Positions 8,102 to 30,716 are shown, counted from the first letter of the stretch. The stretch is DNA of 32,000 nt from Anaerobacillus isosaccharinicus (GCF_001866075.4 NZ_CP063356.2:5192926-5224925), one strand, 5' to 3'. Notes: a model not told the origin generated them from the sequence alone. A program made the numbers and translations.

Positions 8102-8196
8102 AATGTAAAATGTAGCGTGTAGAATGACGTTAGTAACGCTTCGAAGTTTTTCATAAACAATCTACATTTTAAATTTTACATTCTACATTTTACATT
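8102..8196. repeat. Heptad-arm palindromic element, copy 1 (dnaB|queC gap)
   Basis: AATGTAA AATGTAG ... GCTTCGAAG ... CTACATT TTAAATT TTACATT CTACATT TTACATT. Confidence 0.85.
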
Positions 8197-8245
8197 ATCT
8201 CTTAATAAAAATATACGTCATTACTTGGTAAATAACACAACAATC

Positions 8246-8279
8246 CCCCTTTAGAACTTTTTTCAAGTACTAAAAGGGG
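8246..8279 (-). other. Stable hairpin between dnaB and queC without a clear U-tract
   Basis: Minus strand CCCCTTTTAGTACTT-gaaaaa-AGTTCTAAAGGGG. Confidence 0.55.
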
Positions 8280-8368
8280 AATACTAGTGATTATAAACTA
8301 ACATTAACAAATTCTTTTTAAAAGCTTCGAAAGCACTTCTCTCACAAATCAATAATTCAGAAATGAAC

Positions 8369-9739
8369 TTATGCTCCTGCGCCAATAGGCATATTATTCT
8401 CATCAAAACGCCGTTCTAAGTTTACGAATTTATTATATTCCTTCACAAAAGCTAGCTCTACTGTTCCAACAGGGCCATTCCTTTGTTTAGCAATAATGAT
8501 TTCAATGATATCCTTATTTTCGCTTTCTTTATCATAGTAATCATCTCGATACAAGAAAGCAACAATATCTGCATCCTGCTCAATACTTCCGGATTCACGA
8601 ATATCAGACATCATTGGACGTTTATCCTGACGGGATTCTACACCACGGGAAAGCTGAGAAAGGGCAATAACAGGAACTTCTAACTCCCTTGCCAATGCTT
8701 TAAGTGATCTAGAAATCTCAGAAACTTCTTGCTGGCGATTTTCGCCACTACGGCCATCACCACGAATCAACTGCAAATAATCTATTAAAATCATGCCTAG
8801 ACCTTTTTCTTGACTCAACCTGCGGCACTTTGCCCGGATATCATTAACACGAATACCAGGCGTGTCATCAATATATATACCAGCCTTAGATAAGCTTCCC
8901 ATCGCCATAGTAAGTTTCGTCCAGTCCTCTTCTTGAAGAGAACCTGTACGAAGTCTCTGTGCATCAAGGTTTCCCTCAGCACAAATCATCCTCATAACAA
9001 GCTGAGAAGCGCCCATCTCTAAACTAAAAATAGCTACATTTTCATCGGTTTTAGTTGCTACATTTTGAGCAATATTTAAAGCAAAGGCTGTTTTACCTAC
9101 AGATGGACGAGCCGCAACAATGATTAAGTCATTTCGTTGAAATCCAGCTGTCATCCGATCCAACTCAGAAAACCCTGTTGGAATTCCAGTTATATCCCCT
9201 GTTCGATTTTGAAGTTTTTCGATATTATCGTATGCTTCAACAAGCACATCTTTTATAGAAATAAACGCACTTGTATTTTTTTTATGGGAAACTTCTAAGA
9301 TCGTTTTCTCTGCTTCATTTAAGATTGCGTCTACTTCATCTTCTTCAGCATACCCTTCAGCTGCTATGTTTGTAGCTACTCGAATTAGTCGTCTTAACAA
9401 GGATTTCTCTTCAACAATTCTACTATAATACTCAACATTTGCAGCGGTAGGAACTGAGCTAGCTAAGTCACTTAAATAAGAAACGCCACCAATTTCCTCA
9501 AGCCATTTCTTGTCCTGGAGCTCGGCTGTTACCGTTATCAGGTCAACCGGTTCTCCTTTTTCGGCTAATTGAATCATCACGCTGTAAATCCGCTGATGTG
9601 CAGCCCGATAGAAATCTTCCGATGCTAGTCTTTCTGATGCTGTAACAAGAGCCTCTGGTTCTAAAAAAATCGCACCTATAACCGCTTGTTCTGCCTCAAT
9701 ATTTTGTGGCGGAGTGCGATCAGCGAACAATTCACTCAT
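8369..9739 (-). CDS. dnaB: Replicative DNA helicase (DnaB; called DnaC in B. subtilis)
   Basis: RTPPQNIEAEQAVIGAIFL, LIIVAARPSVGKTAFALNIAQN, GMILIDYLQLI, EVPVIALSQLSRGVESR. Confidence 0.97.
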   Translation of the reverse strand: MSELFADRTPPQNIEAEQAVIGAIFLEPEALVTASERLASEDFYRAAHQRIYSVMIQLAEKGEPVDLITVTAELQDKKWLEEIGGVSYLSDLASSVPTAANVEYYSRIVEEKSLLRRLIRVATNIAAEGYAEEDEVDAILNEAEKTILEVSHKKNTSAFISIKDVLVEAYDNIEKLQNRTGDITGIPTGFSELDRMTAGFQRNDLIIVAARPSVGKTAFALNIAQNVATKTDENVAIFSLEMGASQLVMRMICAEGNLDAQRLRTGSLQEEDWTKLTMAMGSLSKAGIYIDDTPGIRVNDIRAKCRRLSQEKGLGMILIDYLQLIRGDGRSGENRQQEVSEISRSLKALARELEVPVIALSQLSRGVESRQDKRPMMSDIRESGSIEQDADIVAFLYRDDYYDKESENKDIIEIIIAKQRNGPVGTVELAFVKEYNKFVNLERRFDENNMPIGAGA

Positions 9740-9761
9740 GATGGTTTCACCTACCTTTTTT

Positions 9762-9861
9762 AATGTAAAATGTAGAATTTAGAATGAGAATGATTAAGGG
9801 TAAGACTTCGAAGCTTCCCCCAAAACAATTCTACATTTTACATTCTACATTCTAAATTTTA
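9762..9861. repeat. Heptad-arm palindromic element, copy 2 (rplI|dnaB gap)
   Basis: AATGTAA AATGTAG AATTTAG AATGAG ... ACTTCGAAGCTT ... CTACATT TTACATT CTACATT CTAAATT TTA; ends on the rplI stop codon. Confidence 0.88.
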
Positions 9862-10302
9862 TCCTTCTACAACATGTACTTTAATTGTTGCTGTAACTTC
9901 ATGGTGAAGTTTGATTGGAACGTTAGTATAGCCTAGTGCACGAATAGGCTCGTCTAGTTCAATTTTACGCTTGTCTACTTTCATTTTCATTTTAGCTAGG
10001 GTGTCGGCAATTTGCTTGCTTGTAACGGCACCAAATAGACGTCCACCTTCACCAGACTTCGCCTTAATTTCGACAGTCAGTTTTTCTAGCTTTTCTTTAT
10101 ATACTTGAGCCTCTTTCAATTTTTCTTCTGCGCGCTTTTCTTCGCCTTGCTTTTTCACTTCTAATGTTTTTAAATTGCCTGAGTTTGCTTCAGCAGCTAA
10201 TTTATTTGGTAACAGAAAGTTTCTTGCGTACCCTTCAGAAACATTTTTTACTTCTCCTTTTTTACCTTTACCTTTTACGTCTTCAAGAAAAATTACTTTC
10301 AT
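9859..10302 (-). CDS. rplI: 50S ribosomal protein L9
   Basis: [36 protein letters not shown]. Confidence 0.97.
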
Positions 10303-12269
10303 TCTTCTCTTCCCCCTTCAAAATATTGATCTATTTTTTCCATTAATAATCTTTCAGCTTCATCTAAAGAAACATCGCCAAGCTGGGTTGCTGCATTTGT
10401 CAAATGTCCTCCACCATCCAGCATTTCCATAATTAATTGTACATTGACATCACTTAAAGACCTTGCACTAATACTTGTTGCACCGTCTTTTCGTTTTGAA
10501 ATAACAAATGAAGCAACGACATCATTCATTGATAAAAGTGTGTCAGCTGCCTGAGCTATAAGGACTTGGCTACAAACTTCATCAGGATTTCCTTTTGCTA
10601 TTGCTATTCCATTTCTATATATATGAGCACTTTCAATTAACCTAGATCGCTTAATATACTGGTCTAAATCTTGTTTTAATAAATTTTGCACTAAATGTGT
10701 ATCTGCACCTTTGGACCTTAAGTAAGATGCGGCATCAAAAGTCCTTGAACCTGTTCGAACAGCAAAGCTTTTTGTATCAACGATGATTCCCGCTAACAAA
10801 GCAGTAGCTTCAAGGAGGTCAAGCTTAGTTTGCTTTGGTTGATACTCAAGAAGCTCAGTTACTAGCTCCGAGGTTGATGAGGCATAAGGTTCCATATAGA
10901 CGAGCACAGCTTCATCAATAAACTCTTCACCACGACGATGATGATCTAGAACGATTACACGGTCAATTTTATCTAATAACTTTGGTTCAATCACTAATGA
11001 AGGTTTATGTGTATCAACTACAACTAATAATGTATTAGGTGTCACTTCCTCTAACGCTTCTTCAGGAGTGATAAAGTGCGCCCATAAACGGTCATGCTTT
11101 TCAACTTCTTCCATGAGCTTACGAACATCTCTACTAATATTATTGCGATCTAATATAATATAGCCTTCTTTACCATTAAGCTCGGCTAATTTTAATACAC
11201 CAATTGCGGCACCAATGGCATCCATATCTGGACTAATATGCCCCATGATCATGACACGGTCACTTTCTAAAATAAAGTCTCGAATGGCATGAGAGATAAC
11301 TCTTGCCCTAACTCTCGTTCGTTTTTCAACAGCATTTGACTTCCCACCGTAAAAGCGTACTTTTCCATTTTTTTGTTTAATAGCAACCTGGTCACCACCT
11401 CTACCAAGAGCTAAATCTAAACTCGATTGAGCCAATATACCAAGTTCTTGAAGGCTCCCTTGTCCGCTACCAACACCAATACTTAAAGTAATCGGTATCT
11501 TTTCCCTAGCAGTTGCTTCCCTTACTTCATCAAGGAGATCAAACTTTGTTTCTTCAATTTTCTCTAATATCTCTTGATGAAAAATAGCTAGAAACCGGTC
11601 TGAAGATGTTCGCCTTAAAAAGACACCATGTTCCTTTGACCAACTATTTAAACTTGAAGTGACCTGACTCATTAATTTACTTCTAATTTGGTCTTCCATA
11701 CCTTGTGTAACTTCATCATAGTTGTCTAAATAAATAATAGCAATAACAGTTTGTTCCTTTTCGTACAGCTTTTTCACTTTTGTTTCTTCAGTAATATCAA
11801 AGAAATATATGAGCCTTTCATCACGTCGAAAGTTCGTCCGAAAAACATTTTCACCAATTTGTATCGATACTTCATTTTGTCCACTTTCAATAGCATCAGC
11901 AAGTTCCACAGCAATTTTGGAAATCGAGCTTCCAATACAATCTTCTTCTATAATCGAATTAACCATCGGATTTGCCCACTGAATGATTTTTTCTTCATTA
12001 TAAAGAAGAATTCCTATCGGAAGTTTCGTAACAGCCTCTTCTCCTGCTTTATTAACACGATATGTTAGTGTTGAGATGTACTCTTCGATATCCCTTTTGT
12101 ACAAATTTCTCGCCTGTATCGTGTAGAAAAGGAGGATTCCTAAGCTTAAGAATCCAAGTAAACCAATGATCCACTGGTATATTGTTAAAATCCCAATGAA
12201 AATGAATGCCACAGCAAATAATGCGATAATATGATAGCCATGCCACCGTTTTAATAGGAATTCTGGCAT
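10299..12269 (-). CDS. gdpP: Cyclic-di-AMP phosphodiesterase GdpP/YybT (PAS, degenerate GGDEF, DHH-DHHA1)
   Basis: [42 protein letters not shown]; ATGA-type overlap with rplI. Confidence 0.96.
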
Positions 12270-12284
12270 AATTTCAACTCCTAA

Positions 12285-13220
12285 TTAATTCGAGTTTTTT
12301 ATTCTTTTCCGAAGTTCAAATCCTAAATCAATTATACCTAATATTCGATAGATATAAAGGAGAAATGGGGCAATTAAAGTAACGATGATAATTCCAATAG
12401 GAATGGATTTATTAAATCCTTTAGCATGACAATAAAACATGATTACAGCTAATCCTTGGATCGTCATAGCAATCTCTAAAAGGGGGAACAAATTCCACAT
12501 CACCATATAAAGTGCCGTTCCTTCTTCTAACCCCACTAAAATAAAGATTGATGTTACTAAATAATACCATAAAAATGACTTTGGAAATGCCCACTCCCGA
12601 AATGGTTTGAACGGAGCAACTTTCTCCCCAATTCTTTTTAAGATTGCATAGGCGATTACTTGAACAAAAAGAGCAAAAAATACTCCCGTTGTGATGATTA
12701 AAGACGGCGCTAAAAACATTAGGCGATCAATAAAATCAATTAAGGGCTCTAGTTGTTTACCTGGGTCTTGTCCAATTGCAAGAAGCATTGATTCAGCTGT
12801 TTGTACGGAATCTCTCATTAATTCTTGAATGACTTTAATTGGATGTAAGTCTAATACGACGATGCTTAAAATAAAGTACAAAATTAAATTACTAATATAA
12901 GCTAGGCTTCCACCAAATAATACTGTAAATGCTGATTTTTTTCTTCTATATAACTCCCCAACAACAATTCCACTACTTCCAAAAATAATAGCACTAAGAA
13001 TAAGGACTACCCCACCAATAGTAAAAGAAACAAAGGAGGCGACAACCCATAACATCAATCCTGCTTTCCAGCCATTTCTTACTGTGTACACAATAAAAGG
13101 GACTGGTAATATCCAAAGTAAAATGGAACCTAAGATCGGTAAAAAAACTGTTAAAAAGGCTATTAATGCAAAAATTGCTGCAAAAATTGCTCCTTCAGTC
13201 ATTACCTTGGTATTTTTCAT
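12285..13220 (-). CDS. yybS: YybS-like DUF2232 membrane protein; likely start MKNTKVMTEG
   Basis: Multi-pass membrane protein directly upstream of gdpP, as in Bacillus; ORF track start 13292 is upstream of a better ATG. Confidence 0.8.
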   Translation of the reverse strand: MKNTKVMTEGAIFAAIFALIAFLTVFLPILGSILLWILPVPFIVYTVRNGWKAGLMLWVVASFVSFTIGGVVLILSAIIFGSSGIVVGELYRRKKSAFTVLFGGSLAYISNLILYFILSIVVLDLHPIKVIQELMRDSVQTAESMLLAIGQDPGKQLEPLIDFIDRLMFLAPSLIITTGVFFALFVQVIAYAILKRIGEKVAPFKPFREWAFPKSFLWYYLVTSIFILVGLEEGTALYMVMWNLFPLLEIAMTIQGLAVIMFYCHAKGFNKSIPIGIIIVTLIAPFLLYIYRILGIIDLGFELRKRIKNSN

Positions 13221-13439
13221 TAGACTTCCCTCATTTCTAAAAACAGTTCCTAAATGATCGATCGCTATCCTATCAAATGTAACTATATCCATTCCTGATT
13301 ATATACGACTAAATTGATTTTGAAAAATAGTCTTCGATACTTATCGAATTTTTTTCTTATACTACCATCCAGTATGTTTGTTGAATTCATATATTCAATT
13401 AATAATTAATAATTGATAGTATAAGAAAAAATTCGTAAT

Positions 13440-13461
13440 GAAGGCATAACTAGATGCCTTC
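13440..13461 (-). terminator. Terminator whose stem encodes the last codons of the ktr gene
   Basis: Minus strand GAAGGCAT-ctagtt-ATGCCTTC then ATTACGAATTTTTTC; stop TAG lies in the loop. Confidence 0.65.
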
Positions 13462-14106
13462 TTCCTCAAATTTTTTCAAATCATTGTTATGACCTATTAA
13501 AATTAAAATATCCTTTTCCAATATTAGTTGATCTGGAAAAGGTGTAATAATAACATCTTCCCCTCTTTTTATACCTAATATTGTACAGCCATACTTTGCA
13601 CGAATATCTAATTTTTGAATGGTTTTATTAGCGACTTTATGTGAAGCAATAAGCTCCATAATGCTATAGTCAGGAGACAGTTCAATATAATCGATAATTT
13701 TCTCTGAAACTAAGTAGTGGGCAATTCTTACTCCCATATCTTTTTCGGGATGAATAATTCGGTCTGCACCAATTTTTTCAACTACTTTATGGTGATAATT
13801 ATTTTGAGCTTTTACCCATACGTGCTTAACATTTAATTCTTTCAACAAAAGTGTGCAAAGAATGCTCGCCTGGATATTGTCACCAATTGCTACTATTACG
13901 TACTCAAAGTTCCTAATTCCTAAAGATAATAATGTATTTTCGTCTGTAGCATTCGCAACAACTGCGTGTGTCGAAAAATTAGCAAAATCATGTACTCTAT
14001 CCTCATTAGTATCAATGGCTAAAACTTCATGCCCCATTGAATATAATTCTTTACAAACACTACCACCAAATCTTCCTAAACCAACAACCGCAAATTGTTT
14101 CTTCAT
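13450..14106 (-). CDS. Ktr/Trk potassium uptake regulatory subunit (RCK_N plus RCK_C), KtrA/KtrC type
   Basis: MKKQFAVVGLGRFGGSVCKELYSMGHEVLAIDTNEDRV; RCK_C-like IQKLDIRAKYGCTILGIKRGEDVIITPFPDQLILEKDILILIG. Confidence 0.93.
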   Translation of the reverse strand: MKKQFAVVGLGRFGGSVCKELYSMGHEVLAIDTNEDRVHDFANFSTHAVVANATDENTLLSLGIRNFEYVIVAIGDNIQASILCTLLLKELNVKHVWVKAQNNYHHKVVEKIGADRIIHPEKDMGVRIAHYLVSEKIIDYIELSPDYSIMELIASHKVANKTIQKLDIRAKYGCTILGIKRGEDVIITPFPDQLILEKDILILIGHNNDLKKFEEEGI

Positions 14107-14213
14107 AATAAACACGCCCCCTTACTATACTTACTTCCTTTATGTATAGTTTAAACAGTTTTTGATTTACAATGTGTTTGCCCTACAGAAAAAGTGTAAC
14201 CTGTTGTCATTAA

Positions 14214-14250
14214 ATAAAAAAAGGAGATAGACTATAAGCCATCCCCTTTT
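14214..14250 (-). terminator. Terminator of the rpsF-ssb-rpsR operon
   Basis: Minus strand AAAAGGGGATGGCTTATAGTCTATCTCCTTTTTTATTT (with G-U pairs). Confidence 0.8.
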
Positions 14251-14258
14251 GACATTAA

Positions 14259-14504
14259 TTATTCACCGCTAACATACGGTAATAAAGCGATTTGACGTGC
14301 ACGCTTAATTGCAGTAGTTAATTGTCGTTGGTACTTAGCTGAAGTTCCAGTTACACGACGAGGTAAAATTTTACCACGCTCAGAAACGAAACGCTTAAGT
14401 AGTTCAACGTTTTTATAGTCGATTTTCGTGATCTTGTTTACTGTAAAGTAACATACTTTACGGCGCTTCGCACCACGGCCACCACGACGTCCTCCCATTG
14501 CCAT
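14259..14504 (-). CDS. rpsR: 30S ribosomal protein S18
   Basis: [49 protein letters not shown]. Confidence 0.97.
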
Positions 14505-14591
14505 CTAAAAAACCTCCTTCTTTATAAATTTTTATATTCATCCAAAAGGGTACTTACCCTTATTTAAGTTAAACTAAGAAAGCCAATAGAT

Positions 14592-15083
14592 CTAGAATGG
14601 TAAATCATCATCTGAGATATCAATTGGCTTGCCATCACTAGCAAAAGGATCATCAGAAAATGACTGATTACTACGGCCTTGATTCTGGTTGTTATTATTT
14701 CCTCCTTGATTAGGAGAGCCATAATAGTCTCCACCGCCCTGATTTCCACCAGAATTGTTAGAGCCTTTCGTTTCAAGAAATTGCACACTATCAGCTACAA
14801 CTTCCGTTATAAAAACTTTCTTTCCTTCATTGTTTTCATAATTACGAGTTTGTAGACGACCATCAACACCCGCTAAACTTCCTTTACGTAAGTAATTAGC
14901 AACATTTTCTGCTTGTTTACGCCAAATGACTACGTTAATAAAGTCTGCTTCTCGGTTACCTTGTTGGTTAGAAAATGGTCTGTTTACAGCAAGTGTAATA
15001 CTTGCTACAGCAATTCCATTCGGCGTGTACTTAAGTTCAGGATCTCTTGTGAGTCGACCTACCAGAACGACACGGTTAAGCAT
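14592..15083 (-). CDS. ssb: Single-stranded DNA-binding protein
   Basis: [33 protein letters not shown]...; C-terminal tail DISDDDLPF. Confidence 0.97.
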
Positions 15084-15114
15084 CAGAACCCCTCCCCAAT
15101 ATATCTACTAGTTC

Positions 15115-15402
15115 TTATTCTTCGTCTTTAGTAATAAGTAAACGAATTACATCTTCGTTAATTTTAATTAAACGATCGAATTCAGCGATTGCTGCTGGTT
15201 CAGCTGTTACGTTTAGTAATACATAGAAGCCTTCACGGAAGTCTTCAATTTCATAAGCTAAACGACGCTTACCCATTTCTTGAACCTTATCAAGAGTCGC
15301 TCCATTATCAGTTAAAACGTTGTTAAAACGTTCAACTAACTCTTTCTTTGCAGCTTCTTCTAGGTTTGGTCGAATAATGTACATGATTTCATATTTACGC
15401 AT
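15115..15402 (-). CDS. rpsF: 30S ribosomal protein S6
   Basis: [18 protein letters not shown] ... [22 protein letters not shown]; RBS AAAGGAGGTG. Confidence 0.97.
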
Positions 15403-15428
15403 TTGTACGTCACCTCCTTTTGGTCTAA

Positions 15429-15457
15429 CGGCCCCTCTTAATTGAGGAGCAAGGGGC
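15429..15457 (-). promoter_or_regulatory. Candidate S6:S18 ribosomal-protein leader hairpin
   Basis: RNA GCCCCU-UGCUCCUCAAUUAAG-AGGGGC-CG in the short rpsF 5' UTR. Confidence 0.4.
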
Positions 15458-15521
15458 GAATAATAACAATTTTATAAGTGTCATTTACTCGCATTTATCG
15501 ATTATAGCAGAATTAATATAG

Positions 15522-15618
15522 AAAGTAAAATGAAAAATGTAGAATGTAGAATTTTTTTAGGGAAGCTTCGAAGCTAGTCCCACGCCATTTTACATTCTAC
15601 ATTGAATTTTACATTTTA
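15522..15618. repeat. Heptad-arm palindromic element, copy 3 (ychF|rpsF gap)
   Basis: AAAGTAA AATGAAA AATGTAG AATGTAG ... GGGAAGCTTCGAAGCTAGTCCC ... TTACATT CTACATT GAATT TTACATT TTA; ends on the ychF stop codon. Confidence 0.88.
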
Positions 15619-16716
15619 AACGTTAAACCTAAAGTGAATAACATCACCATCAGCAACGACATATTCTTTTCCTTCTAGCCTTACTTTCCCTTTTTCCTTA
15701 GCCGCAGCATGAGAACCAGCTTCAACTAGGTCATCATACGCTACTACTTCCGCACGAATAAAACCTCTCTCGAAGTCTGTATGGATGACTCCAGCAGCTT
15801 GAGGAGCTTTAGTCCCTTTCCGAATTGTCCATGCACGAACTTCTTGAACACCTGCTGTAAAATAGGTTGATAATCCTAATAAATGATAAGCAGCGCGGAT
15901 TAGTTGGTCTAAACCAGATTCCTTAATTCCTAACTCCTCAAGGAACATTGTCTTTTCTTCGCCTTCAAGTTCAGAAATTTCCTCTTCTATTTTTGCACAA
16001 ACAACGATAACCTCTGAGTTTTCTGCTGCAGCAAATTCTCTTACCTTTTGAACTAGTGGATTTTCATCTGCTACAAGTAACCCATCCTCATTCACGTTTG
16101 CTACGTATAATACAGGCTTCATCGTTAGTAAATGCATTCCTTGGACAATTTTCTTTTGCTCGTCCGTTAAATCTACACTTCTAGCAGGCTTTTCATTTTC
16201 AAATGCCTCTTTAAGTAAATTTAAAATTTCATACTCTGCCATTGCATCTTTATCTCTTTGCTTCAATAACTTTTCAACACGCATAATACGTTTTTCGACT
16301 GAATCAAGATCAGCAAGAATTAATTCTAAGTTAATCACTTCAATATCACGAATTGGATTTACACTACCAGATACGTGAGTGATGTTTTCATCTTCAAAAC
16401 AACGAACAACATGTGAGATTGCATCAACTTGGCGAATATGTGATAAAAATTTGTTTCCTAACCCTTCACCCTTACTTGCCCCTTCTACAATTCCTGCAAT
16501 ATCAGTAAATTCAAATGCAGTTGGAACCGTTTTTTTCGGTTGAACAAGTTCAGTTAACTTATTTAGACGGTGATCAGGAACTTCAACAATCCCTACATTA
16601 GGATCAATCGTACAGAATGGATAGTTAGCAGACTCTGCTCCTGCTTGTGTAATTGCATTAAATAATGTTGATTTTCCTACGTTAGGCAAACCAACAATTC
16701 CAGTCGTTAAAGCCAT
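15616..16716 (-). CDS. ychF: Redox-regulated ATPase YchF (Obg/OLA1 family)
   Basis: [39 protein letters not shown]; C-terminal [16 protein letters not shown]. Confidence 0.97.
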
Positions 16717-16912
16717 ATCATTGACACTTCCTTCATTATTAATAATATTTAATAAATTTCATTATTCAATATTCGTGACACTAATTTACAAGACTAAATC
16801 GCGTCCATTAGTTGCAATCATGCTAATTATGAAATTCATTTATATAAACTTTAAGTACGAATTCAAAGTTAAAAACAAGTTTTCTAATCCTTCACAATTA
16901 TATTGATTAAAG

Positions 16913-16944
16913 AAGAAAAGCGCAAGCGCCCCGTTAGCCCCGAC
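16913..16944. repeat. Fragment resembling the GCGCAAGCGCCC intergenic repeat seen in Bacillaceae genomes
   Basis: GAAGAAAAGCGCAAGCGCCCCGTTAGCCCCGA, a GC-rich mini-palindrome in AT-rich intergenic DNA. Confidence 0.45.
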
Positions 16945-16966
16945 TTGTTAATGTTCTGAAAGGAAA

Positions 16967-16993
16967 AACAAGCCTTGTTAAGCTTGTTTTTTT
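16967..16993. terminator. Bidirectional-looking terminator overlapping the end of the molybdopterin oxidoreductase gene
   Basis: AACAAGCcttgttaaGCTTGTTTTTTT; T-runs on both strands; stop codon 16978-16980 in the loop. Confidence 0.65.
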
Positions 16994-20381: not shown

Positions 20382-20398
20382 TATTTATTCCCGGGCAT

Positions 20399-20428
20399 GT
20401 ATAGAAAGGAAAAAATATCCGTATACTA
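20399..20428 (+). promoter_or_regulatory. Candidate forespore (sigma-F/sigma-G) promoter of yyaC
   Basis: GTATA (20399-20403), 18-nt spacer, TATACTA (20422-20428). Confidence 0.45.
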
Positions 20429-20461
20429 ATACTATTAATTTTTAAGATGGGAGGTCATAGG

Positions 20462-21082: not shown

Positions 21083-21153
21083 AGAATTATGTAACCTTCA
21101 ATTCGAAATATTTATTTAGCTACTTTAACTATTTAAAACCTTTATTAAGCACG

Positions 21154-21199
21154 AAAAAAGACAACTCCTTACATGTATATGTAGAGGTTGTCTTCTTTT
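21154..21199. terminator. Bidirectional terminator between convergent yyaC and the DUF554 gene
   Basis: AAAAAAGACAACTCC-ttacatgtatatgta-GAGGTTGTCTTCTTTT. Confidence 0.85.
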
Positions 21200-21261
21200 A
21201 TGAATAATTTATTAGTTTTGCGTTTAAAGCGTAGAGTTTTCAAAGTAGCTCAGTGCAGTTT

Positions 21262-21963
21262 TTAAAAGAAGCTAAGGATCGTAACAATAACGGCTACTAC
21301 TAGAATTGCTGGTAGTAGATTAGCTACTCTAATTTTTGTAATTCCAAGAATGTTTAAACCGATCGCTAAAATCATCACGCCACCTGTTGCTGTCATTTCA
21401 ACAATAAATGCATCCATGATCACTTGTGGGACGTAATTTGTTATTTGTGTCGCGAGAATAGCAATCGTTCCTTGATAGACCATTACTGGAAATGCTGAGA
21501 ACAAAACACCAATACCAAGCGTACTAGTAAATAAAATTGCGGAAAAACCATCTAACATCGATTTCGTATATAACACGGCATGATCATTTCTTAAACCACT
21601 GTCTAGTGCACCAACAATAGCCATTGCACCAACAACATAGATTAATGTTGCTGTGACAAAACCTTTAGCAAAAGATCCCTCTTCCTTAGCACCTGTTTTT
21701 ACTTCTAACCATTTCCCAAGTCTGTTAAGCTTATCCTCTAAATCCCACTTTTCTCCTAAAACTGCACCTATAGCTAAACTTCCTATGACAATTAAGAAGT
21801 TCTCACTCTTTAATCCCATTCCTACTCCAATAATTATTACAGCTAATGCAATGGCTTGCATGACTGTTACTTTCACTCTTTCTGGAATATTTCTTAGCTT
21901 TATACCAATTAATGAACCAATAATAATTGCTAAACCATTTACAATTGTTCCAAACAACGCCAT
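21262..21963 (-). CDS. DUF554 family membrane protein
   Basis: GTIVNGLAIIIGSLIGIKLRNIPERVKVTVMQAIALAVIIIGVGMGL; GSLAIGAVLGEKWDLEDKLNRLG. Confidence 0.9.
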   Translation of the reverse strand: MALFGTIVNGLAIIIGSLIGIKLRNIPERVKVTVMQAIALAVIIIGVGMGLKSENFLIVIGSLAIGAVLGEKWDLEDKLNRLGKWLEVKTGAKEEGSFAKGFVTATLIYVVGAMAIVGALDSGLRNDHAVLYTKSMLDGFSAILFTSTLGIGVLFSAFPVMVYQGTIAILATQITNYVPQVIMDAFIVEMTATGGVMILAIGLNILGITKIRVANLLPAILVVAVIVTILSFF

Positions 21964-21975
21964 TCTCGTCTTCTC

Positions 21976-23136
21976 CTATCCCACTAAACCTTCTTTTATC
22001 TCTATAATCATATCAATCCATTGGTCAATTTCTTCTATTGTATTATAAAGTCCAAAACTAGCCCGTAACGTACCACCTTCAATTGTTCCAATCGTTTCAT
22101 GCGCTAATGGCGCACAATGGAGTCCACCTCTTAATGCAACTTGATAGTGTTGGTCAAATATCATTGCAATTTCTTGGACATCGGTTTCATTAATAATAAA
22201 CGGAATGACTGCCAACCTTTCAACATGAAGATCAGGACCAAATACAGTTACACCATTAATATTTTTGAGTTTTTCTAAGCAGTATTTTGTTAATTTCCAT
22301 TCATGTTGGAAAATAGTCTCGACACCTCTACTAACTACTTCATCAATTCCAGCCGATAATCCAGCGATACCTGGTGTGTTTAATGTTCCACTTTCATAGC
22401 GGTTTGGTCGTGCTAGAGGTTGATCTTTTTCTTCAGAATGACTACCAGTTCCCCCATGAAAAAGTGGAGTTAGTTCGATTGATTTTTTAACAATAAGGGC
22501 ACCCGTTCCTTGTGGACCTAATAACCCTTTATGACCTGGAAATGCTAGCATATCGATATTCATTTCTTCCATATTTATCGGCAATATACCCGCTGTTTGT
22601 GAAGCATCGACTAAAAAGGAAATTCCTCTCTCTTTACAAACTGTCCCGATCATTTCTATTGGAAAAATAGCCCCTGTTAAGTTTGAGCCGTGGCTAGCTA
22701 CAATTAATTTCGTTTCAGGGAGTACTTCTGTTAAAAGTTGTTCTCTTGAGATATGACCATTATGATCACTTTTTAAATAGGTAACCTTTACACCTTTTTC
22801 TTGTTTTAAATACTCCAAAGGTCTCCTTACCGAATTATGTTCGTAAGAAGTTGAAATAACATGATCACCTTGTTTTAGATGTAAACCTTTAATTCCTTGA
22901 TTTAGTGCGTGAGTTGCGTTTTGACAAAAGATCACATTATTCGGATCTTTTTCGCCAAAAAGCTTTGCTAGCTTTACTCTTGTTTCATATATGACTGACG
23001 CTGCCTGATTCGCTAATTGATGCCCACCTCGGCCTGGATTGGCTCCAAACTCATTAATGGCTTTGATAACAGCAGTCGCAACAGTGTCTGGCTTTGGAAA
23101 TGAAGAAGCCGCTTGATCAAAATAAATGATTGGCAC
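21976..23136 (-). CDS. Aminotransferase class V / cysteine desulfurase-like enzyme
   Basis: YFDQAASSFPKPDTV, SYEHNSVRRPL, DASQTAGILPINM, FPGHKGLLGPQGTGAL, RGGLHCAPLAHETIG. Confidence 0.92.
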   Translation of the reverse strand: MPIIYFDQAASSFPKPDTVATAVIKAINEFGANPGRGGHQLANQAASVIYETRVKLAKLFGEKDPNNVIFCQNATHALNQGIKGLHLKQGDHVISTSYEHNSVRRPLEYLKQEKGVKVTYLKSDHNGHISREQLLTEVLPETKLIVASHGSNLTGAIFPIEMIGTVCKERGISFLVDASQTAGILPINMEEMNIDMLAFPGHKGLLGPQGTGALIVKKSIELTPLFHGGTGSHSEEKDQPLARPNRYESGTLNTPGIAGLSAGIDEVVSRGVETIFQHEWKLTKYCLEKLKNINGVTVFGPDLHVERLAVIPFIINETDVQEIAMIFDQHYQVALRGGLHCAPLAHETIGTIEGGTLRASFGLYNTIEEIDQWIDMIIEIKEGLVG

Positions 23137-23179
23137 GTTTACCCTCCTAACAAATTTCTCTTTAATCCTATAATTAGAA

Positions 23180-23222
23180 AAAAAGAGACTAACCCTTAAG
23201 GATTGGGTTAGACCTCTTAAGA
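23180..23222 (-). terminator. Terminator after spo0J/parB
   Basis: Minus strand AGAGGTCTAACCC-aatcctta-AGGGTTAGTCTCTTTTTTT. Confidence 0.85.
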
Positions 23223-23280
23223 GACATCTTTACGTCCGTCTTACTTTTTGTCTAGCAAAAAACTAGCTCTTTTCTTATTA

Positions 23281-24126
23281 TTAGTTTCCTTCTAATAACG
23301 ATAAAATTCTTTCTAAATCATCTTCAGAATAAAATTGAATTTCAATCTTACCCCTTTTCTTATTTTTCTTGATCGCAACAGAAGTACCAAAACGATCTCT
23401 TAAATACTCTTCTTTTTCTTTTATGAAAATAGAAGGCTCTTGTTTTTTTCGAATTGTTTCACGTGAAACATTCTCATTTAGATTCTGAATAATTTGTTCT
23501 AGTTGCCTGACATTCAGACCTTCTTCAAGTACCTTTTTGAGTAAAGGTACGAGCTTTTCTTTATTTTTTAATCCTAGTAAAGCTCGTCCATGCCCCATGG
23601 AAAGCTCTCCTTCTTCGATTAAAGCTTGAACTTCGTTTGGTAACTGTAATAAACGAAGATGATTGGCAATATGTGGGCGACTTTTCCCTAAACGCTTTGC
23701 AAGCTGCTCTTGTGTTAATTTTAAATGTTTCATAAGCTTATCGTAGGCAACAGCTTCTTCGATCGAGTTCAAATCTTCCCTTTGTAAGTTCTCAATTAAG
23801 GCAAACTCCATCATTTTATCTTCTGTTAACTCTTTGATAACAACAGGGACTGTTTTTAATCCCGCCTCTGTAGCAGCACGATATCTACGCTCACCTACGA
23901 CAATTTCATAGCCTTTAATACTTTTGCGGACTAGGATTGGTTGTAATATGCCATGGTTTAGGATTGAATCTTTCAACTCAGTAATTGATTCCTCTGAAAA
24001 GTACTTTCTTGGTTGATAAGGATTTGGCCTTAATTCACTTAATGAAACCTCTTGAATTTGTTCTTGTTTTTCATCCATTGCATCTGGAAAAAATGCTGAT
24101 ATCCCCTTACCTAACCCTTTAGCCAT
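23281..24126 (-). CDS. spo0J: Chromosome partitioning protein ParB/Spo0J
   Basis: [82 protein letters not shown]. Confidence 0.95.
23455..23470. promoter_or_regulatory. parS: parS site, inside spo0J
   Basis: Perfect TGTTTCACGTGAAACA palindrome; encodes part of NVSRETI. Confidence 0.95.
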
Positions 24127-24880
24127 TCGCAACCACTTCCTTTGCTAAATCTAGATAAACTTCAGCTCCCCTTGATTTCGGGTCATAAGTAATGATTGGT
24201 TGCCCGTGACTTGGCGCTTCACTTAAACGTACATTTCTTGGAATAATTGTTTTAAAAACTTTTTCTCGAAAGTATTTTTTTACTTCATCAATCACTTGAA
24301 TTCCCAAATTCGTTCTCGCATCAAGCATCGTTAACAATACACCTTCAATTGCTAAGTTTTTATTTAAGTGCTTTTGAACTAACCTAACCGTATTTAAAAG
24401 TTGACTTAATCCTTCAAGGGCATAATACTCACATTGAACTGGTATTAAGACTGAATTAGCAGCTGTCAAAGAATTAATCGTTAATAAACCTAAAGAAGGT
24501 GGGCAGTCAATAATGATATAATCATATTCTAGTTCCACTTGTTCAAGTGCTCTTCTTAATCGAACTTCCCTTGAAATTGTAGGAACTAGCTCTATTTCAG
24601 CACCGGCTAACTGAATAGTAGAAGGTATAATATGTAAACCGTCTACCGTTGTTTGCCTGATAACTTCTTTTGGACTTATATCTTCAACTAAAATGTTATA
24701 AATACAATTTTCAACATCGCCTTTATCTATACCAATTCCACTTGTTGTATTTCCTTGGGGATCAACGTCAATTAACAGTACTTTTTTACCTAAATGAGCT
24801 AGACAAGCACTTAAATTAACAGCAGTGGTTGTTTTACCAACCCCACCTTTTTGATTCGCGATTGCTATTACTTTCCCCAT
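24119..24880 (-). CDS. soj: ParA/Soj partition ATPase; likely start [13 protein letters not shown]
   Basis: [56 protein letters not shown]. Confidence 0.96.
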
Positions 24881-25146
24881 TCTTTCACCTACCTCATTTA
24901 CATGTCTTTCTATCATATTTAAATAGAATTTTGGTATAAAATGTATCTAGATTAAGATTTTTAACCAAAAAATATCTATCTAAAAATGCATTAGTTATAT
25001 TTTATCATGAAAATTTAAAACTAAGTTATTTTTTACGTTAAAAAATTGAAAAACTATTGATATTGATAGAAAAGTAAATAAAAAAAGAACTCAAATCCGA
25101 GGAAGTGAGCCATAGAATTAAGATAAATGGTAATTACCTAAAATTA

Positions 25147-26007
25147 TTATTTCTTTTTTGGGATTTTAATCGTGAATTGATAATAGTCTTCATGATCTTC
25201 TTCATCGGTATCAATAGAAAGACCACTTTTGATAACCATATCAACAGATTGACGAATTGTATTCATCGCTAAACGCATATCTCTTGAAAATGCTTTTCTT
25301 TGCGGTTTTTTCTTTTTGATTGGTCCTTCTAAGAACTTCTTAATAAGTTCTTCGGTTTGTTTCACATTTAGTCCTTTTTCAATAACTTCCGTAAGAAGTT
25401 TTTCTTGAACCTCTTCATCTTTTACAGATAGAAGTGCTCTAGCATGACGTTCTGTAATCACTCGATTTAATATAGCTTCCTGTACCTTTTCCGGTAACTG
25501 TAATAGCCGAAGTTTATTTGCGATTGTGGACTGCCCTTTTCCAAGGCGTTGCGCTAAACTTTCTTGTGTTAAACCATGTAACTCTAATAATTTAGCATAG
25601 GCAACAGCTTCTTCAATCGCTGTTAAACCTTCACGTTGCAAATTTTCAATTAAAGCAACAGAAGCAGTTTGGGAATCATTAAATTCCTTCACAATTGCCG
25701 GAATATGCTCCCAACCTAATTTCGTCACTGCTCTCCAGCGGCGTTCCCCAGCAATGATCTCAAATCTACCATCACGCTCACGGACAACGATTGGTTGAAT
25801 AACACCATGGGTACGAATCGTTTGTGCTAATTCATCAATACGTTCATCAACAAAAACAGTACGGGGCTGAAAACGATTTGGTACTATATCCTTAATAGGT
25901 AATTGTTTTACTTCTTCGTTCTCCCTAATTTCCTCAACTTTTTCTACTTCTTCAATTATTTCTTCGCTCTTTTCATTAAAACCGAACAGGCGTGAAAACG
26001 GCTTCAT
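25147..26007 (-). CDS. noc: Nucleoid occlusion protein Noc (ParB-like)
   Basis: N-terminal amphipathic [10 protein letters not shown], ParB fold, adjacent to rsmG; conserved synteny soj-noc-rsmG. Confidence 0.94.
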
Positions 26008-26101
26008 CGCGACACCACCCTCTGAAAACTACCTTCCTAACATATTTCTACATTGATATTAGAAAGTCCTTCTTTAATAATAACATTATAAACAATAAAA
26101 A

Positions 26102-26117
26102 TGTTTCACGTGAAACA
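26102..26117. promoter_or_regulatory. parS: parS site between rsmG and noc
   Basis: Perfect TGTTTCACGTGAAACA. Confidence 0.95.
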
Positions 26118-26200
26118 TTTTTATTATGAATAAATCAAATAAGTCTATTAGACTAGCAAATTCAAAGATCAGTCAGATGTAACCAACAAATTTACTCTCC

Positions 26201-26234
26201 TAAAGAAGCTAACGATTAGTAGTTAGCTTCCTAA
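26201..26234 (-). terminator. Hairpin downstream of rsmG, weak U-tract
   Basis: AGAAGCTAAC-gattagta-GTTAGCTTCCT. Confidence 0.45.
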
Positions 26235-26248
26235 AGAATTTCAAATTT

Positions 26249-26962
26249 TTATAACGGTTGTTTATTTGGAGTTCCTGGCTTTCTTGGATACGTATTTGGT
26301 GTTTTCTTGCGTTTTTCGATAAATACAAAATGTCTTGTACTCTCTTCAACGGGTAATAATAAACTTTCGTTTCTAACAACGTGTCCTCCAAGAGTAGCAA
26401 TCGCTTTTTTACTATCTGCAATTTCATTAACTACTTCCGGACCTTTCATTGCTAGGAACAAGCCGCCTACTTTCACTAAAGGCAAACAAAGTTCTGCTAA
26501 AACAGGCATTCTTGCTACAGCCCTAGCTATGACAAAATCATAATTTTCACGATGTTCTTTTTTCTTAGCAAACGATTCAGCACGATCATGAAAAAATGCT
26601 ACCTTTTCTAACTTTAACATTGAAGCTAAATGTTGTAAAAAAGAAATTCGCTTGTTCAAAGAATCGACAATTGTTACGTTTAAGTGAGGAAAACAAATTT
26701 TTATGGGAATACTTGGAAATCCAGCTCCAGCACCTACATCAACTAGACGTAACGGCTTTGTGAAATCATGAAAAAAAGCTGCACTAATTGAATCATAAAA
26801 ATGTTTTAAATACACCGCTTCTTCATCGGTAATCGCTGTTAAATTCATTTTATTATTCCACTCAACTAATTCACGAAAATATAACTCAAATTGTTGCATT
26901 TGCGTTTCATTAAGAACAATACCTTTTTCTGCTAAGCTAGAATGAAACTCTGTCTTATTCAT
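26249..26962 (-). CDS. rsmG: 16S rRNA (guanine-N7) methyltransferase RsmG (GidB)
   Basis: [63 protein letters not shown]. Confidence 0.96.
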
Positions 26963-28859
26963 CTGTACCACTTTCTTTCGTTCTTTTTAATTTACCTTGC
27001 TCTAAATAGACTAATAAAATTGATACATCAGCAGGATTAACACCTGAAACCCTTGAAGCCTGACCAACAGAAAGCGGTCTTACTTCACTTAGTTTTTGAC
27101 GAGCCTCTGTTGCCAGTCCAGAAATTGCATGATAATCAAGATTTTCAGGGATCTTTTTATCATCCATTTTCTTCATTTTTTCAACTTGTTGATACTGCTT
27201 TTCAATATATCCAGCATACTTAATTTGAATTTCTACTTGTTCAGCCACTTCAGCTGAAACTTCTTCATCACTAGGGAAAAGCTTCGCAATAAATTGATAC
27301 GTAATTTCAGGACGCTTTAATAGTACAGATGCTTTATAACCATCTTGTAATGGTGAAGATCCAATTTCAGCAAGTAATGACTGCACTTCACTAGTCGGCC
27401 TAATCATCGTTTGTTCTAATCGCTCAATTTCCTTTCTAACTTGGTCTTGTTTTGCGACAAAACGCTGGTAACGTTCCTCAGGAATAAGGCCGACCTTATA
27501 TCCAATTTCTGTAAGTCTTAGATCAGCATTGTCATGACGCAGCACTAACCGATGCTCCGCTCTTGAAGTAAGCAACCGATAAGGTTCATTCGTTCCTTTT
27601 GTTACTAAATCATCTACTAAAACACCAATATATGCTTCTGAACGATCAAGAATAATCGGCTCGCGGTTAGATGCTTTTAGCGCTGCATTAATCCCTGCAA
27701 AAATCCCTTGCCCTGCAGCCTCTTCATAGCCTGATGTTCCATTAATTTGACCTGCTGTAAAAAGGTTTTGAACTAATTTTGTTTCAAGAGTTGGCCAAAG
27801 TTGCGTTGGTACGACTGCATCATACTCAATGGCATACCCTGGACGCATCATTTTTACATTTTCTAACCCTTTAATTGTTTTTAACATTTCTAGCTGCACT
27901 TCTTCTGGCAAGCTTGTTGAAAATCCTTGGACATAAACTTCAGACGTATTTTTCCCTTCAGGTTCTAGAAAAATTTGGTGTCTAGGCTTATCACTAAAAC
28001 GAACAATTTTATCCTCAATTGACGGACAATATCTTGGACCAGTTCCTTCTATTACTCCTGAATACATAGGCGAACGGTGCAAATTAGCATTTATAATTCC
28101 GTGTGTTTCCTCTGTCGTATACGTTAACCAACAAGGTAATTGATCTACGACATTAAATTCTTTCGTTTCATATGAAAAAGCTCTTGGTTCATCATCTCCA
28201 GGTTGAATTTCGGTCACGCTATAATCAATAGTATCTCCTTGAACACGTGGAGGAGTTCCTGTTTTAAATCTAACTAACTGAAAGCCATGATTAAGTAAAT
28301 CATACGCTAAATTAACAGAAGGCTGTTGATTGTTTGGTCCACTTTCATAAGCTAAGTCACCAAGTATGACTTTTCCTCGTAAATAAGTACCGGTTGTAAT
28401 AATGACTGTCTTAGCTTTATAAGTTGCACCAGTATTAGTAACAACACCGCGGCAAAGTCCATCTTCAACAATTAGTTTTTCAACCATTCCTTGACGTAAC
28501 AATAAATTCTCTTGCTCTTCGATTGTCTTTTTCATTTCATGTTGATATAAATATTTATCGGCCTGAGCACGCAGCGCCCGGACTGCTGGCCCCTTTGCAG
28601 TGTTTAACATTCTCATTTGAATATGGGTTTTATCAATATTCCTTCCCATTTCGCCACCAAGAGCATCTATTTCTCTAACAACTATCCCTTTTGCAGGACC
28701 ACCTACAGAAGGATTACAAGGCATATAAGCAACTGCATCTAAATTTAACGTTAACATTAACGTGTTAGCACCCATTCGTGCCGCAGCTAAGCCCGCCTCT
28801 ACCCCTGCATGCCCAGCCCCAACAACGATAACATCAAACTCACCAGCATGATATTCCAT
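26955..28859 (-). CDS. mnmG: tRNA uridine-5-carboxymethylaminomethyl modification enzyme MnmG (GidA)
   Basis: [67 protein letters not shown]. Confidence 0.97.
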
Positions 28860-28880
28860 TAAAATTCCTCCTCTACTTCA

Positions 28881-28979
28881 TTGTAAAATGTAGAATTTAG
28901 AATGTAGAATTAGTCGAGGGGAAAGCTTCGAAGCAACACTCACAACATTCTTCATTTTAAATTTTACATTCTACATTTA
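28881..28979. repeat. Heptad-arm palindromic element, copy 4 (mnmE|mnmG gap)
   Basis: TTGTAA AATGTAG AATTTAG AATGTAG AATTAG ... AAGCTTCGAAGC ... CATT CTTCATT TTAAATT TTACATT CTACATT TA; ends on the mnmE stop codon. Confidence 0.88.
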
Positions 28980-30353
28980 TTTCCCTAAACAAAACTGTGA
29001 AAAAAGTTGATCGATTAGGCTTTCTGAAACGGTATCTCCGTTGATTTCACCTAATAGTTCCCATGTTCTTGTTATATCTATTTGAACCATATCAATAGGT
29101 ACTGCTGAATGCAGCGCCATAATCGCTTCATCAATCGTTCCTAGCGCTTGATGTAGTAAACCTATATGCCTAGAATTTGATACATACGTTAAGTCGCCAC
29201 CTTCAATATTACCCTGGAAGAAAAGTTTTGAGATGGCATCTTCTAACTCATCAATGCCTTCATCTTCTATTAAAGATGTCGTAACAACGGGTCTTCCTTT
29301 TGCTAACACCTTAACTTTCTCTAAATCAATTTTCTTAGCTACATCAGTTTTATTGACGATAATGATTGCATCCATGTTTTCAATAATTTCAAATAAGCTC
29401 TCATCTTCTTTTGTTAATACTTCACCGTAATTCAAGACAAGTAAAACGAGTTCTGCTTCTTTAACTACTTTCCTTGATCGTTCAACACCAATTTTTTCAA
29501 CAATATCTTCTGTTTCTCTAATACCAGCAGTGTCTAACAATCGTAGCGGAACACCTCTAACATTAACATATTCCTCAATAACATCCCTTGTTGTACCTGG
29601 TATATCTGTCACAATCGCTTTCGCTTCATGAACTAAGCTATTTAATAATGAGGATTTTCCGACATTCGGTCTTCCAATAATAACTGTTGAAAGCCCTTCT
29701 CGTAATATTTTCCCTTGTTGGGCCGTGTTAAGAATTTTTTCTATTTCACCCTTAACATACTGTGCTTTCTCTAAAAGAAGGTTAGTCGTCATTTCCTCAG
29801 CATCGTATTCTGGATAATCAATATTTACCTCAACGTGAGCAACCGTCTCTAGTAACGCTTGTCTTAGCTTCTGAACTTTTTTTGATAATCTTCCTTCGAC
29901 TTGGCCAATAGCAACGTTCATTGCCTTGTCTGTTTTAGCACGAATCAAATCAATAACACCTTCTGCTTGAGACAAATCAATTCGACCATTTAGAAAAGCC
30001 CGTTTTGTGAACTCACCTGGTTCAGCTAGACGAACACCCGACTGCAACACTTGTTGCAAGACGCGATTAACAGAAACTAAGCCACCATGACAGTTAATTT
30101 CAACAATGTCTTCCCTTGTAAATGTTCTTGGAGCCTTTAAAACTGAAACCATTACTTCATCTATAACTTGCTCTGAATTTTTTTCAATAATATAGCCGTA
30201 GTGGATCGTATGACTTTCCACCTCTAATAAAGATTTTCTACCTTTATAAATTTTATTAACCGCAGCAACTGCATCGTCTCCACTTACTCGAACAATAGCA
30301 ATAGCACCTTCCCCCATCGCAGTGGAAATTGCGGCAATTGTATCAAATTCCAT
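28977..30353 (-). CDS. mnmE: tRNA modification GTPase MnmE (TrmE)
   Basis: [71 protein letters not shown]-terminal FCLGK. Confidence 0.97.
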
Positions 30354-30625
30354 CTTCTTCTTCACCTCTTAATAGAAAAGCATAGAGCGCCGCATAGCGG
30401 CGACAAGCAAATAATATTATTGTATTTCTTTATAGAAAATCCTACTGTCCCTAACTAACAAGAATACCACAGTCTCTCTTTAATAAAAAGATTTTCCAAC
30501 TACTCTATTCAACTATTGTTTCCGTTTTTCACTATTATCAACCGTAAAACTATCCACAACCCTTTTTTCTTATTTTTTTCTTTTAAAAACATTTCTATTT
30601 TTCCACATGTTAATAACCGATTTAA

Positions 30626-30716
30626 AATGCAAAATGTAGAATATAGAATTACTTGTGGGTAAATTCTACGAAGCTTTTCAAAAACATTTTACATTCTAAA
30701 TTCTATATTCTACATT
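30626..30716. repeat. Heptad-arm palindromic element, copy 5 (jag|mnmE gap)
   Basis: AATGCAA AATGTAG AATATAG AATTACT ... CTACGAAGCTT ... CATT TTACATT CTAAATT CTATATT CTACATT; divergent core. Confidence 0.8.

Follow-up and report, generated by a model that had tools for sequence, protein, structure and literature searches.

The window analysed here, 32,000 nucleotides from Anaerobacillus isosaccharinicus (GCF_001866075.4, NZ_CP063356.2:5192926-5224925), is an origin-proximal region of the Anaerobacillus chromosome. Its gene order runs yidC, jag, mnmE, mnmG, rsmG, noc, soj, spo0J ... ychF, rpsF, ssb, rpsR ... rplI, dnaB, queCDEF, purA and a tRNA cluster. Among named organisms, Anaerobacillus species give the best protein matches. 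Among these genes lie five dispersed, non-coding palindromic elements of about 91-100 bp each, a density of one per 6.4 kb. They exist where the original prediction, made from the sequence alone, had placed them, and they carry the inverted arrays of the heptad AATGTAR and the palindromic core described there. All five are intergenic, and the genes that flank them are all on the minus strand. We refer to them as c1 to c5.

c1, 8102-8196: left arm 8102-8126 (AATGTAA AATGTAG cgTGTAG AATG), core GCTTCGAAGT at 8138-8147, right arm 8161-8196 with five heptads.
c2, 9762-9861: core ACTTCGAAGC at 9805-9814.
c3, 15522-15618: core GCTTCGAAGC at 15565-15574, inverted in orientation relative to the other copies.
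c4, 28881-28979: core GCTTCGAAGC at 28925-28934.
c5, 30626-30716: degenerate core TTCTACGAAGC at 30664-30674.

Anatomy and placement of the five copies

Each element follows the same plan: two to five copies of AATGTAR, then about 35 nt containing an inner mini-palindrome, GGG..GCTTCGAAGC..CCC(A)4C, then two to five copies of YTACATT. Re-alignment of ten copies, from the window and two relatives and with c3 reverse-complemented, gave the consensus (AATGTAR)n-GAcGTGGGnnTAG-CTTCGAAG-CTtCCCnAAAAC-(AATTYTACATT)n. The palindrome is nested, the outer heptad arms enclosing the inner GGG...CCC / GCTTCGAAGC mini-palindrome, and its sole asymmetry is the A-run beside the centre. This run puts c1, c2, c4 and c5 in one orientation and c3 in the opposite one; a uniform orientation of all five copies was rejected when c3 proved flipped on re-alignment. 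The number of heptads mostly differs between the two arms of one element. In c5 the outer stem is a perfect 18 bp and includes a paired variant heptad, AATATAG/CTATATT. We conclude that all five sites belong to a single dispersed family and are homologous.

Their positions are heterogeneous. The c1 element sits between the dnaB terminator and a putative queC preQ1 riboswitch. The rplI-dnaB spacer is occupied by c2, which follows the rplI stop codon (TAA) directly and leaves 22 nt to the dnaB start (ribosome-binding site, RBS, AGGTAGGTGA). Similarly, c4 occupies the mnmE-mnmG spacer; the TAA stop of mnmE overlaps its first heptad, and it ends 20 nt before the mnmG start. In these two operon-internal spacers only the RBS is left between the element and the next start. 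The c3 element begins at the TAA stop of ychF, and c5 has the canonical jag terminator (30717-30765) on one side and the region upstream of mnmE on the other.

Heptads, core and period

Could such elements be low-complexity sequence thrown up by chance in an AT-rich genome? At 35-37% GC, single AT-rich heptads are indeed common. However, AATGTAGAAT, allowing at most one mismatch, matches the window 32 times as against 5.9 ± 2.5 in dinucleotide shuffles, about 10 standard deviations above, and 29 of the 32 matches fall within the five elements at a spacing of exactly 7 nt. The core GCTTCGAAGC, with the same tolerance, occurs four times where 0.49 are expected, and is confined to c1-c4. Each copy is predicted to form a long hairpin on both strands, with a fold z of -3.9 to -8.1, and none of the shuffles folds as well. 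Relatives carry orthologous copies. An origin by chance is, on these counts, scarcely credible.

Is the heptad phase itself real? A generic detector, in which tandem arrays are matched with their own reverse complement, was applied to about 150 kb of the clade. It found six paired inverted arrays of period 7, as against none or one at each of periods 5, 6, 8 and 9, and the heptad phase is therefore real. The mostly exact 7-nt phase that had been proposed is thus upheld by the in-register matches and by paired arrays specific to period 7.

We found no catalogued repeat or RNA family that matches the elements. Rfam searches of the window, at the gathering threshold and at E<=0.5, returned only tRNAs and a weak preQ1 match, with nothing on the elements; at E<=1, five cross-phylum loci (see below) gave only generic miRNA-hairpin noise on theirs. 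BLAST against plasmids and phages produced no match, and in the literature we found no description of AATGTAR hairpins. The family is uncatalogued, while the kind of repeat to which it belongs, the inverted heptamer pair, is already known.

Turnover at orthologous slots

How do the elements behave between close relatives? Orthologous loci were gathered from seven relatives via their DnaB and MnmE homologues, and included the comparison, envisaged from the outset, with loci that lack the element. Element slots are occupied in L124, L127, L128, L250 and L252 and empty in L126 (at two slots), L251 and L253. A metagenome-assembled genome from ENA (L127/L250; DnaB 99% and MnmE 98% identical) carries c1, c2, c3 and c5. 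Its c2 (L127) is shorter than that of the window by exactly 14 nt, which is two heptads, and its c5 (L250) by exactly one heptad (7 nt). In c5 the window has AATATAG/CTATATT where L250 has AATGTAG/CTACATT, a change between G-C and A-T that is mirrored on both arms. The mnmE-mnmG slot of L250 contains an unrelated element with AATTATG arms and its own core, although the flanking RBS is identical. Anaerobacillus alkaliphilus (L252) has four copies of AATTATG in that slot; L251 and L253 have none there.

A further relative, L128 (DnaB 94%), is occupied at the three corresponding slots; there the outer boundary heptads are unchanged, the RBS or -35 is kept, and the cores are of the GCTTCGNAGC type. 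Its inner arms read AGTTTTG/CAAAACT on both sides, the core orientation is flipped, and there is a one-sided expansion to 14 tandem units (ACTCAAA). In Anaerobacillus MEB173 the arms mix AGTTTAG, AGTGTAG and AATTTAG, and copies occur also on non-origin contigs (L006, L015).

The heptad type thus swaps at the same slots (AATGTAR, AATTATG, AGTTTTG) between genomes whose flanking proteins are 94-99% identical. The original prediction had held that the heptads and core persist while the variable parts differ, and had read this as a sign of selection or spread of the element. The heptads do not persist: they are the part that changes fastest between close relatives, and a conserved, selected signature in heptad and core is not supported. 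Spread, on the other hand, agrees with the presence, absence and replacement seen at orthologous slots.

Do the two arms change together? An alignment-based covariation test showed almost no signal: RNAalifold, run on ten copies, gave 11 pairs with a covariation term of about 0, because the tandem arms make the register ambiguous. Covariation was replaced by two other measures, the sharing of variants from arm to arm and the comparison of orthologues. Variant heptads are common to both arms of one element in 25% of cases, as against 6% between elements (AATGTAR set), and the c5 change described above is mirrored. Of compensatory change there is thus one instance, mirrored on both arms. We conclude that the arms mutate in whole-heptad steps, that changes are mirrored across the arms, and that elements come, go and supplant one another in fixed, tight slots.

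Many short-read contigs of the relatives that carry dnaB or mnmE barely exceed the length of the gene and break off within the elements on either side, which is what multi-copy repeats would lead one to expect. This suggests that the relatives' genomes contain many copies.

A class defined by period and palindromy

If the heptad type is so readily exchanged, what is constant? We scanned one genome per species with an exact pattern (two AATGTAR heptads, a gap of 30-60 nt, YTACATT) and obtained at least 120 matches. Those listed include Bacteroidota, Peribacteria and other lineages of the candidate phyla radiation (CPR), cyanobacteria, Clostridia, Gemmatimonadota, Omnitrophota and others; viral contigs gave one match. 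All the cross-phylum matches are heptad-armed hairpins in which variant heptads agree between the arms and the centres are specific to a lineage or to a copy. Within the AATGTAR arrays positions 1-3 (AAT) are 98-99% invariant and A6 92%. Matches in Moorena consist of mixed GAATNNN heptad arrays.

A permuted control, AAGTTAR in the same architecture, is likewise abundant in metagenomes among the matches listed. AATGTAR as a universal signal was rejected on two grounds: the control is equally abundant among those matches, and unselected heptad palindromes near the seed elements carry arbitrary units (AACGCGG, ACAGTTG, CGTCGTT and others). We then counted palindromic array pairs by period, from 4 to 12, in 1.67 Mb around the seed elements with the seeds themselves excluded. 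Period 7 accounts for 56 pairs, as against 16 at period 4, 5 at period 5, none at period 6, 12 at period 8 and none at periods 9-12. What holds throughout the class is just the 7-nt period and the inversion of the arrays, not the sequence. The minor period-8 signal is fitted by a locus in Bacillaceae bacterium IKA-2 (L123, 11366-11658), where a large palindrome downstream of dnaB has arms of tandem 8-nt units (GGAAAGTT / AACTTTCC).

Might the heptads nevertheless be periodic binding sites for a nucleoid, replication-origin or RNA-binding protein? The near invariance of AAT and A6 would fit, as would the occurrence of five copies in 32 kb of origin-proximal DNA near parS and DnaA-box-like sites; in c4 UAG-N4-UAG-N4-UAG, a candidate HutP-like site, matches the published pattern. 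On the other hand, unrelated heptads replace the sequence at the same slots in close relatives, the wider class has arbitrary heptads, MEB173 has copies away from the origin, and neither hut nor any other linked gene is present among the window genes and the neighbours of the elements. We regard protein-binding arrays as highly improbable. Six other sequence-specific ideas (arrays of -10/-35 boxes, start-stop mini-ORFs of the form AUG-UAR, HutP/TRAP sites, primase YTA sites, RuvC sites and RNase E sites) were dropped as not general, since each depends on AATGTAR, which is replaceable.

Stop codons, gene orientation and strand

Where do the elements lie relative to genes? Among the AATGTAR matches listed, 70 could be classified: 41 lie between co-oriented genes, 24 between convergent and 5 between divergent ones, and 5 more lie inside open reading frames (ORFs). 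Across phyla, then, divergent promoter regions are avoided. Where an arm faces an ORF of at least 100 codons, it starts within 3 nt of the stop codon in 48% (AATGTAR) and 59% (AAGTTAR) of cases, and the stop lies within the array in 32-46% of such arms. Between convergent genes the element is often touched by both stops. As 7 and 3 share no common factor, a stop triplet present in the 7-nt unit comes round in each reading frame within 21 nt, and on either strand it is the 5' arm that bears the stops, here TAA/TAG in every frame. Insertion at a gene end would consequently cost at most a few codons.

This placement is also what would be expected of functional RNA hairpins at the 3' ends of genes, which constitute the main rival explanation. 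The elements would be (bidirectional) terminators, stabilisers against exonucleases or operon-internal RNase III sites, and the heptads extendable A-rich/U-rich stem modules. The bias downstream of genes (24 convergent versus 5 divergent) and the elements flush with stop codons speak for it. So do the centres, which in several phyla exceed shuffled sequence in GC content and in structure; several resemble classic A4/T4-flanked stems, some look like genuine terminator stems, and some have UUCG-like loops. For AAGTTAR, moreover, the RNA fold of the sense strand is the more stable in 29 of 38 cases (29 vs 9, p=0.008) and contains more G.U pairs, which hints at RNA-level selection or at a transcription-linked C-to-T bias.

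In the AATGTAR set, however, the two strands are unbiased (30 vs 26), and the window copies show no strand preference either. A simple intrinsic-terminator scan picked out no copy among the five. After the window core comes a run of A where a terminator would have U, and c1 and c5 follow separate canonical terminators. Among the unselected heptad palindromes 32 are A-first and 26 T-first, so that terminator polarity, with the A-rich arm leading, was rejected for the class. Slots in close relatives are empty with no visible replacement. We consider functional RNA hairpins a tentative explanation, possible for some copies of the class but probably not the general one.

Linked genes and mobility

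Is any gene linked to the elements? All-versus-all clustering of 2,170 ORFs near 120 AATGTAR copies among the matches listed revealed no recurrent protein. DAHP synthase, EF-Tu and LigA were rejected as partners, their neighbourhood being coincidental or inconsistent in position. The DAHP synthase gene adjoins AATGTAR hairpins in two groups, with the hairpin downstream of it in Clostridium (L007, L053) and upstream in Peribacteraceae (L016, L037), which we judge coincidental. Separately, a group II intron domain match (RF00029, 54 bits) at L094 4118-4207 (-) lies about 1.8 kb from an AATGTAR hairpin; a link is not evident.

A classical MITE (miniature inverted-repeat transposable element) would move by cut-and-paste under a transposase encoded elsewhere, and the heptad arrays would be its terminal or subterminal transposase-binding repeats. 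The inverted terminal arrays with TG...CA-containing units, the presence/absence and replacement polymorphism at the same slots, the family-specific centre kept in the Anaerobacillus clade, and assembly breaks typical of multi-copy mobile DNA are all in its favour. The window nevertheless contains no transposase gene, as had been noted originally and as ORF translations and the Pfam labels of syntenic genes now confirm, and none recurs near the 120 cross-phylum copies listed. No target-site duplication is recognisable: TAA-like triplets flank four of the five copies, but they belong to the palindrome and its AT-rich context. For a site recognised by a protein, the arm sequence changes too fast. 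In other phyla, finally, each copy has a unique centre and shared arms, which is not the outcome of copying and pasting whole elements. A classical MITE is therefore an unlikely description of the family.

Preferred reading and proposed mechanism

The original prediction had left a MITE-like, a REP-like (repetitive extragenic palindrome) and an RNA-structural role open. We favour a combination of the first two, with an RNA role as a less probable rival. The five sites are, with a probability of roughly 0.55, a dispersed, non-coding, hairpin-capable REP/MITE-like repeat whose arms are heptanucleotide microsatellites, within a pan-bacterial class of inverted heptads.

How might such elements arise and persist? 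The arms would gain and lose whole heptads, the 7- and 14-nt indels observed being attributable to replication slippage. Palindromy would be kept as heptads drift or are swept (AATGTAR <-> AATTTAG <-> AGTTTAG <-> AGTTTTG; AATTATG), with the mirroring due either to hairpin-templated strand switching (quasipalindrome correction) or to selection for pairing. Whole elements would arise, decay and give way to others within one and the same tight intergenic slot, which is the pattern observed here. They would persist where they are harmless, right behind a stop and before the next RBS or promoter; the stops in all frames suggest how they are tolerated. Where transcribed, an element would yield an AU-rich hairpin of 20-35 bp flush with the stop codon, and some copies may have been co-opted locally, as the -35 of rpsF or as 3' hairpins. 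Two features of the window touch on decay and co-option:

8319-8341, minus strand: solo core-like GTGCTTTCGAAGCTTTTAAAAAG without heptad arms, 11-35 nt past the dnaB stop, resembling the c5 centre on inspection.
15501-15529, minus strand: rpsF promoter-like site TTTACT-17 nt-TGcTATAAT, the top-scoring promoter hit of the region, with its -35 within the terminal heptad of c3.

The former may be the remnant of a decayed element. As for the latter, c3 appears to donate the -35 of the predicted rpsF promoter, a putative case of local co-option; the arrangement of TTTACA/TTTACT, 17 nt and TATAAT upstream of rpsF is kept in L124, L127 and L128. Effects on RNA 3' ends and on promoters are best read as side effects.

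Several observations weigh against this reading. The AAGTTAR strand bias hints at selection on the RNA and not at a purely DNA-level or selfish element, and some of the centres, as described above, look terminator-like. No RAYT (REP-associated tyrosine transposase) or other transposase is tied to the elements in the 32-kb window or in about 150 kb of the relatives' loci, a genome-wide search not having been made. Nor can a target-site duplication be defined, since empty and filled slots differ across the whole spacer. The five copies were counted in one 32-kb stretch, all near the origin. And the repeat reading leaves the unit size of 7 nt unexplained.

It is with the period and the palindromy that a further view begins, in which inverted 7-nt arrays form an unrecognised pan-bacterial class that follows stop codons and has both properties imposed by one universal machine. 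Candidates would be the replisome, through a slippage or fold-back template-switch footprint, or RNA polymerase, through a stem-to-release geometry of about 7-8 nt. Starting from hairpins already in place, arrays would then lengthen one module at a time and serve as extendable terminators or insulators, and the Anaerobacillus family would be a lineage-specific mobile offshoot. We hold this view to be doubtful.

Comparison with known repeats

The closest precedent is the GGGAATC repeat of Xanthomonas campestris/citri, which consists of intergenic tandem heptamers, typically about four units (Rehm et al. 2015, PMC4692102). Each genome has 70-75 inverted pairs of arrays (convergent, on opposite strands) capable of forming stem-loops; they are rarer between divergent ORFs, often lie within 50 bp of a stop codon or overlap it, vary strongly in length between related strains, and have been read as G-quadruplex (G4) elements (PMC4692102). 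The elements described here resemble that description in that inverted arrays of the same heptad lie between genes, near stops and rarely between divergent genes. They differ in that AATGTAR, with at most two isolated G per unit, is neither G-rich nor G4-capable, and G4 formation is consequently not the common denominator. For the Xanthomonas repeat, moreover, no conserved central mini-palindrome is described, and its host belongs to a different phylum.

Units of 7 nt are the most over-represented class of long simple sequence repeat (SSR) in many bacteria (Mrazek et al. 2007, as summarised in PMC4679880 and PMC4692102). Heptanucleotide SSRs, short tandemly repeated repetitive (STRR) sequences and TAACTGA are intergenic, change in 7-nt indel steps, have a scattered phylogeny and no known vector, and for 7-nt repeats slippage tied to the footprint of the polymerase has been proposed (PMC4679880). 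Of the TAACTGA sets, 169 are direct and one is inverted, and most lie shortly before a start codon (MacGregor 2015, PMC4679880). Exact 7-nt tandem units and whole-unit length polymorphism (14-nt and 7-nt indels, the 14-unit expansion) are common to the heptanucleotide SSR/STRR repeats and our elements; in the latter, unlike the mostly direct arrays of SSR, STRR and TAACTGA, the arrays are inverted around a centre and follow stop codons.

A REP is a single imperfect palindrome of 20-40 nt that bears one GTAG/CGTC tag at its end (Di Nocera et al. 2013, PMC3733652). Like REPs and REPINs, the elements are extragenic, hairpin-forming and probably multi-copy, lie after genes, contain GTAG in each AATGTAG heptad and, in other phyla, combine variable loops with conserved stems. 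Unlike them, they are 91-100 nt long with arms of tandem heptads, so that GTAG recurs in every AATGTAG unit, and the sister heptads AGTTTTG and AATTATG lack it.

Correia elements are able to supply parts of promoters and to fold into stems of the RNase III type. With bacterial MITEs (70-300 bp) our elements share inverted ends, the lack of coding capacity, a position next to genes, co-transcription, terminal inverted repeats and presence/absence polymorphism at orthologous sites. MITE families such as Correia/NEMIS, ERIC, RUP and bcr1 are listed as being transcribed into hairpins (PMC3733652). Those families, however, have terminal inverted repeats of unique sequence, defined target duplications and an identifiable parent insertion sequence, none of which can be demonstrated for the Anaerobacillus element.

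Other features of the window and its relatives

Immediately 3' of c1 and directly upstream of queC, a preQ1-I riboswitch match at 8047-8094 (-) is sub-threshold (27.5 bits as against a gathering score of 39, E=0.09); preQ1-like sequence is kept in L123, L124 and L128. The stretch 15403-15529 (-) comprises the promoter-like site at c3 and, after it, a conserved leader with AATGCGAGTAAAT...GCCCCTTGCTCC...GGGGCCGTTAGACCAAAAGGAGG, which is common to all the relatives and may be an rpsF/S6 autoregulatory leader. Two copies of a parS-like palindrome, TGTTTCACGTGAAACA (23452-23478 and 26094-26120), lie next to spo0J/soj and noc, in keeping with a Bacillales region near the origin. In the jag-mnmE spacer (30550-30662) there are three DnaA-box-like 9-mers (CTATCCACA, TTTTCCACA, TTACCCACA), one of them within the c5 centre; across the window such 9-mers are not enriched (11 vs 10.3 expected). 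The DnaA-box-like motifs GTTGTGGATA and TTATTCACATGTGGAAAA are kept in relatives.

A 34-nt duplication, 94% identical (3585-3618 / 3723-3756), covers the region upstream of tRNA-Met and the gene's initial ~14 nt, so that a truncated 5' fragment of the tRNA stands about 140 nt upstream of the intact gene; L128 is similar. In L126 an IS3-family transposase pair (HTH_28 and rve domains) lies at 14532-15694, between an M23 peptidase gene and walR.

Significance

The over-representation of 7-nt microsatellites has been known since 2007 and is still without explanation, and the present results bear on it. The pairing of inverted arrays, observed once in Xanthomonas and put down there to G-quadruplexes, turns up with arbitrary heptads incapable of G4 in Firmicutes, Bacteroidota, CPR, cyanobacteria and others. 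Unit-step indels, mirrored substitutions and the replacement of elements within slots provide testable handles on the heptad puzzle. In practice the elements break short-read assemblies, shift annotated stops and promoters, and offer hypervariable typing markers. The Anaerobacillus family matters chiefly as evidence of a general phenomenon: inverted heptad arrays recur whatever their sequence, keep close to stop codons and in many cases provide the stop themselves.

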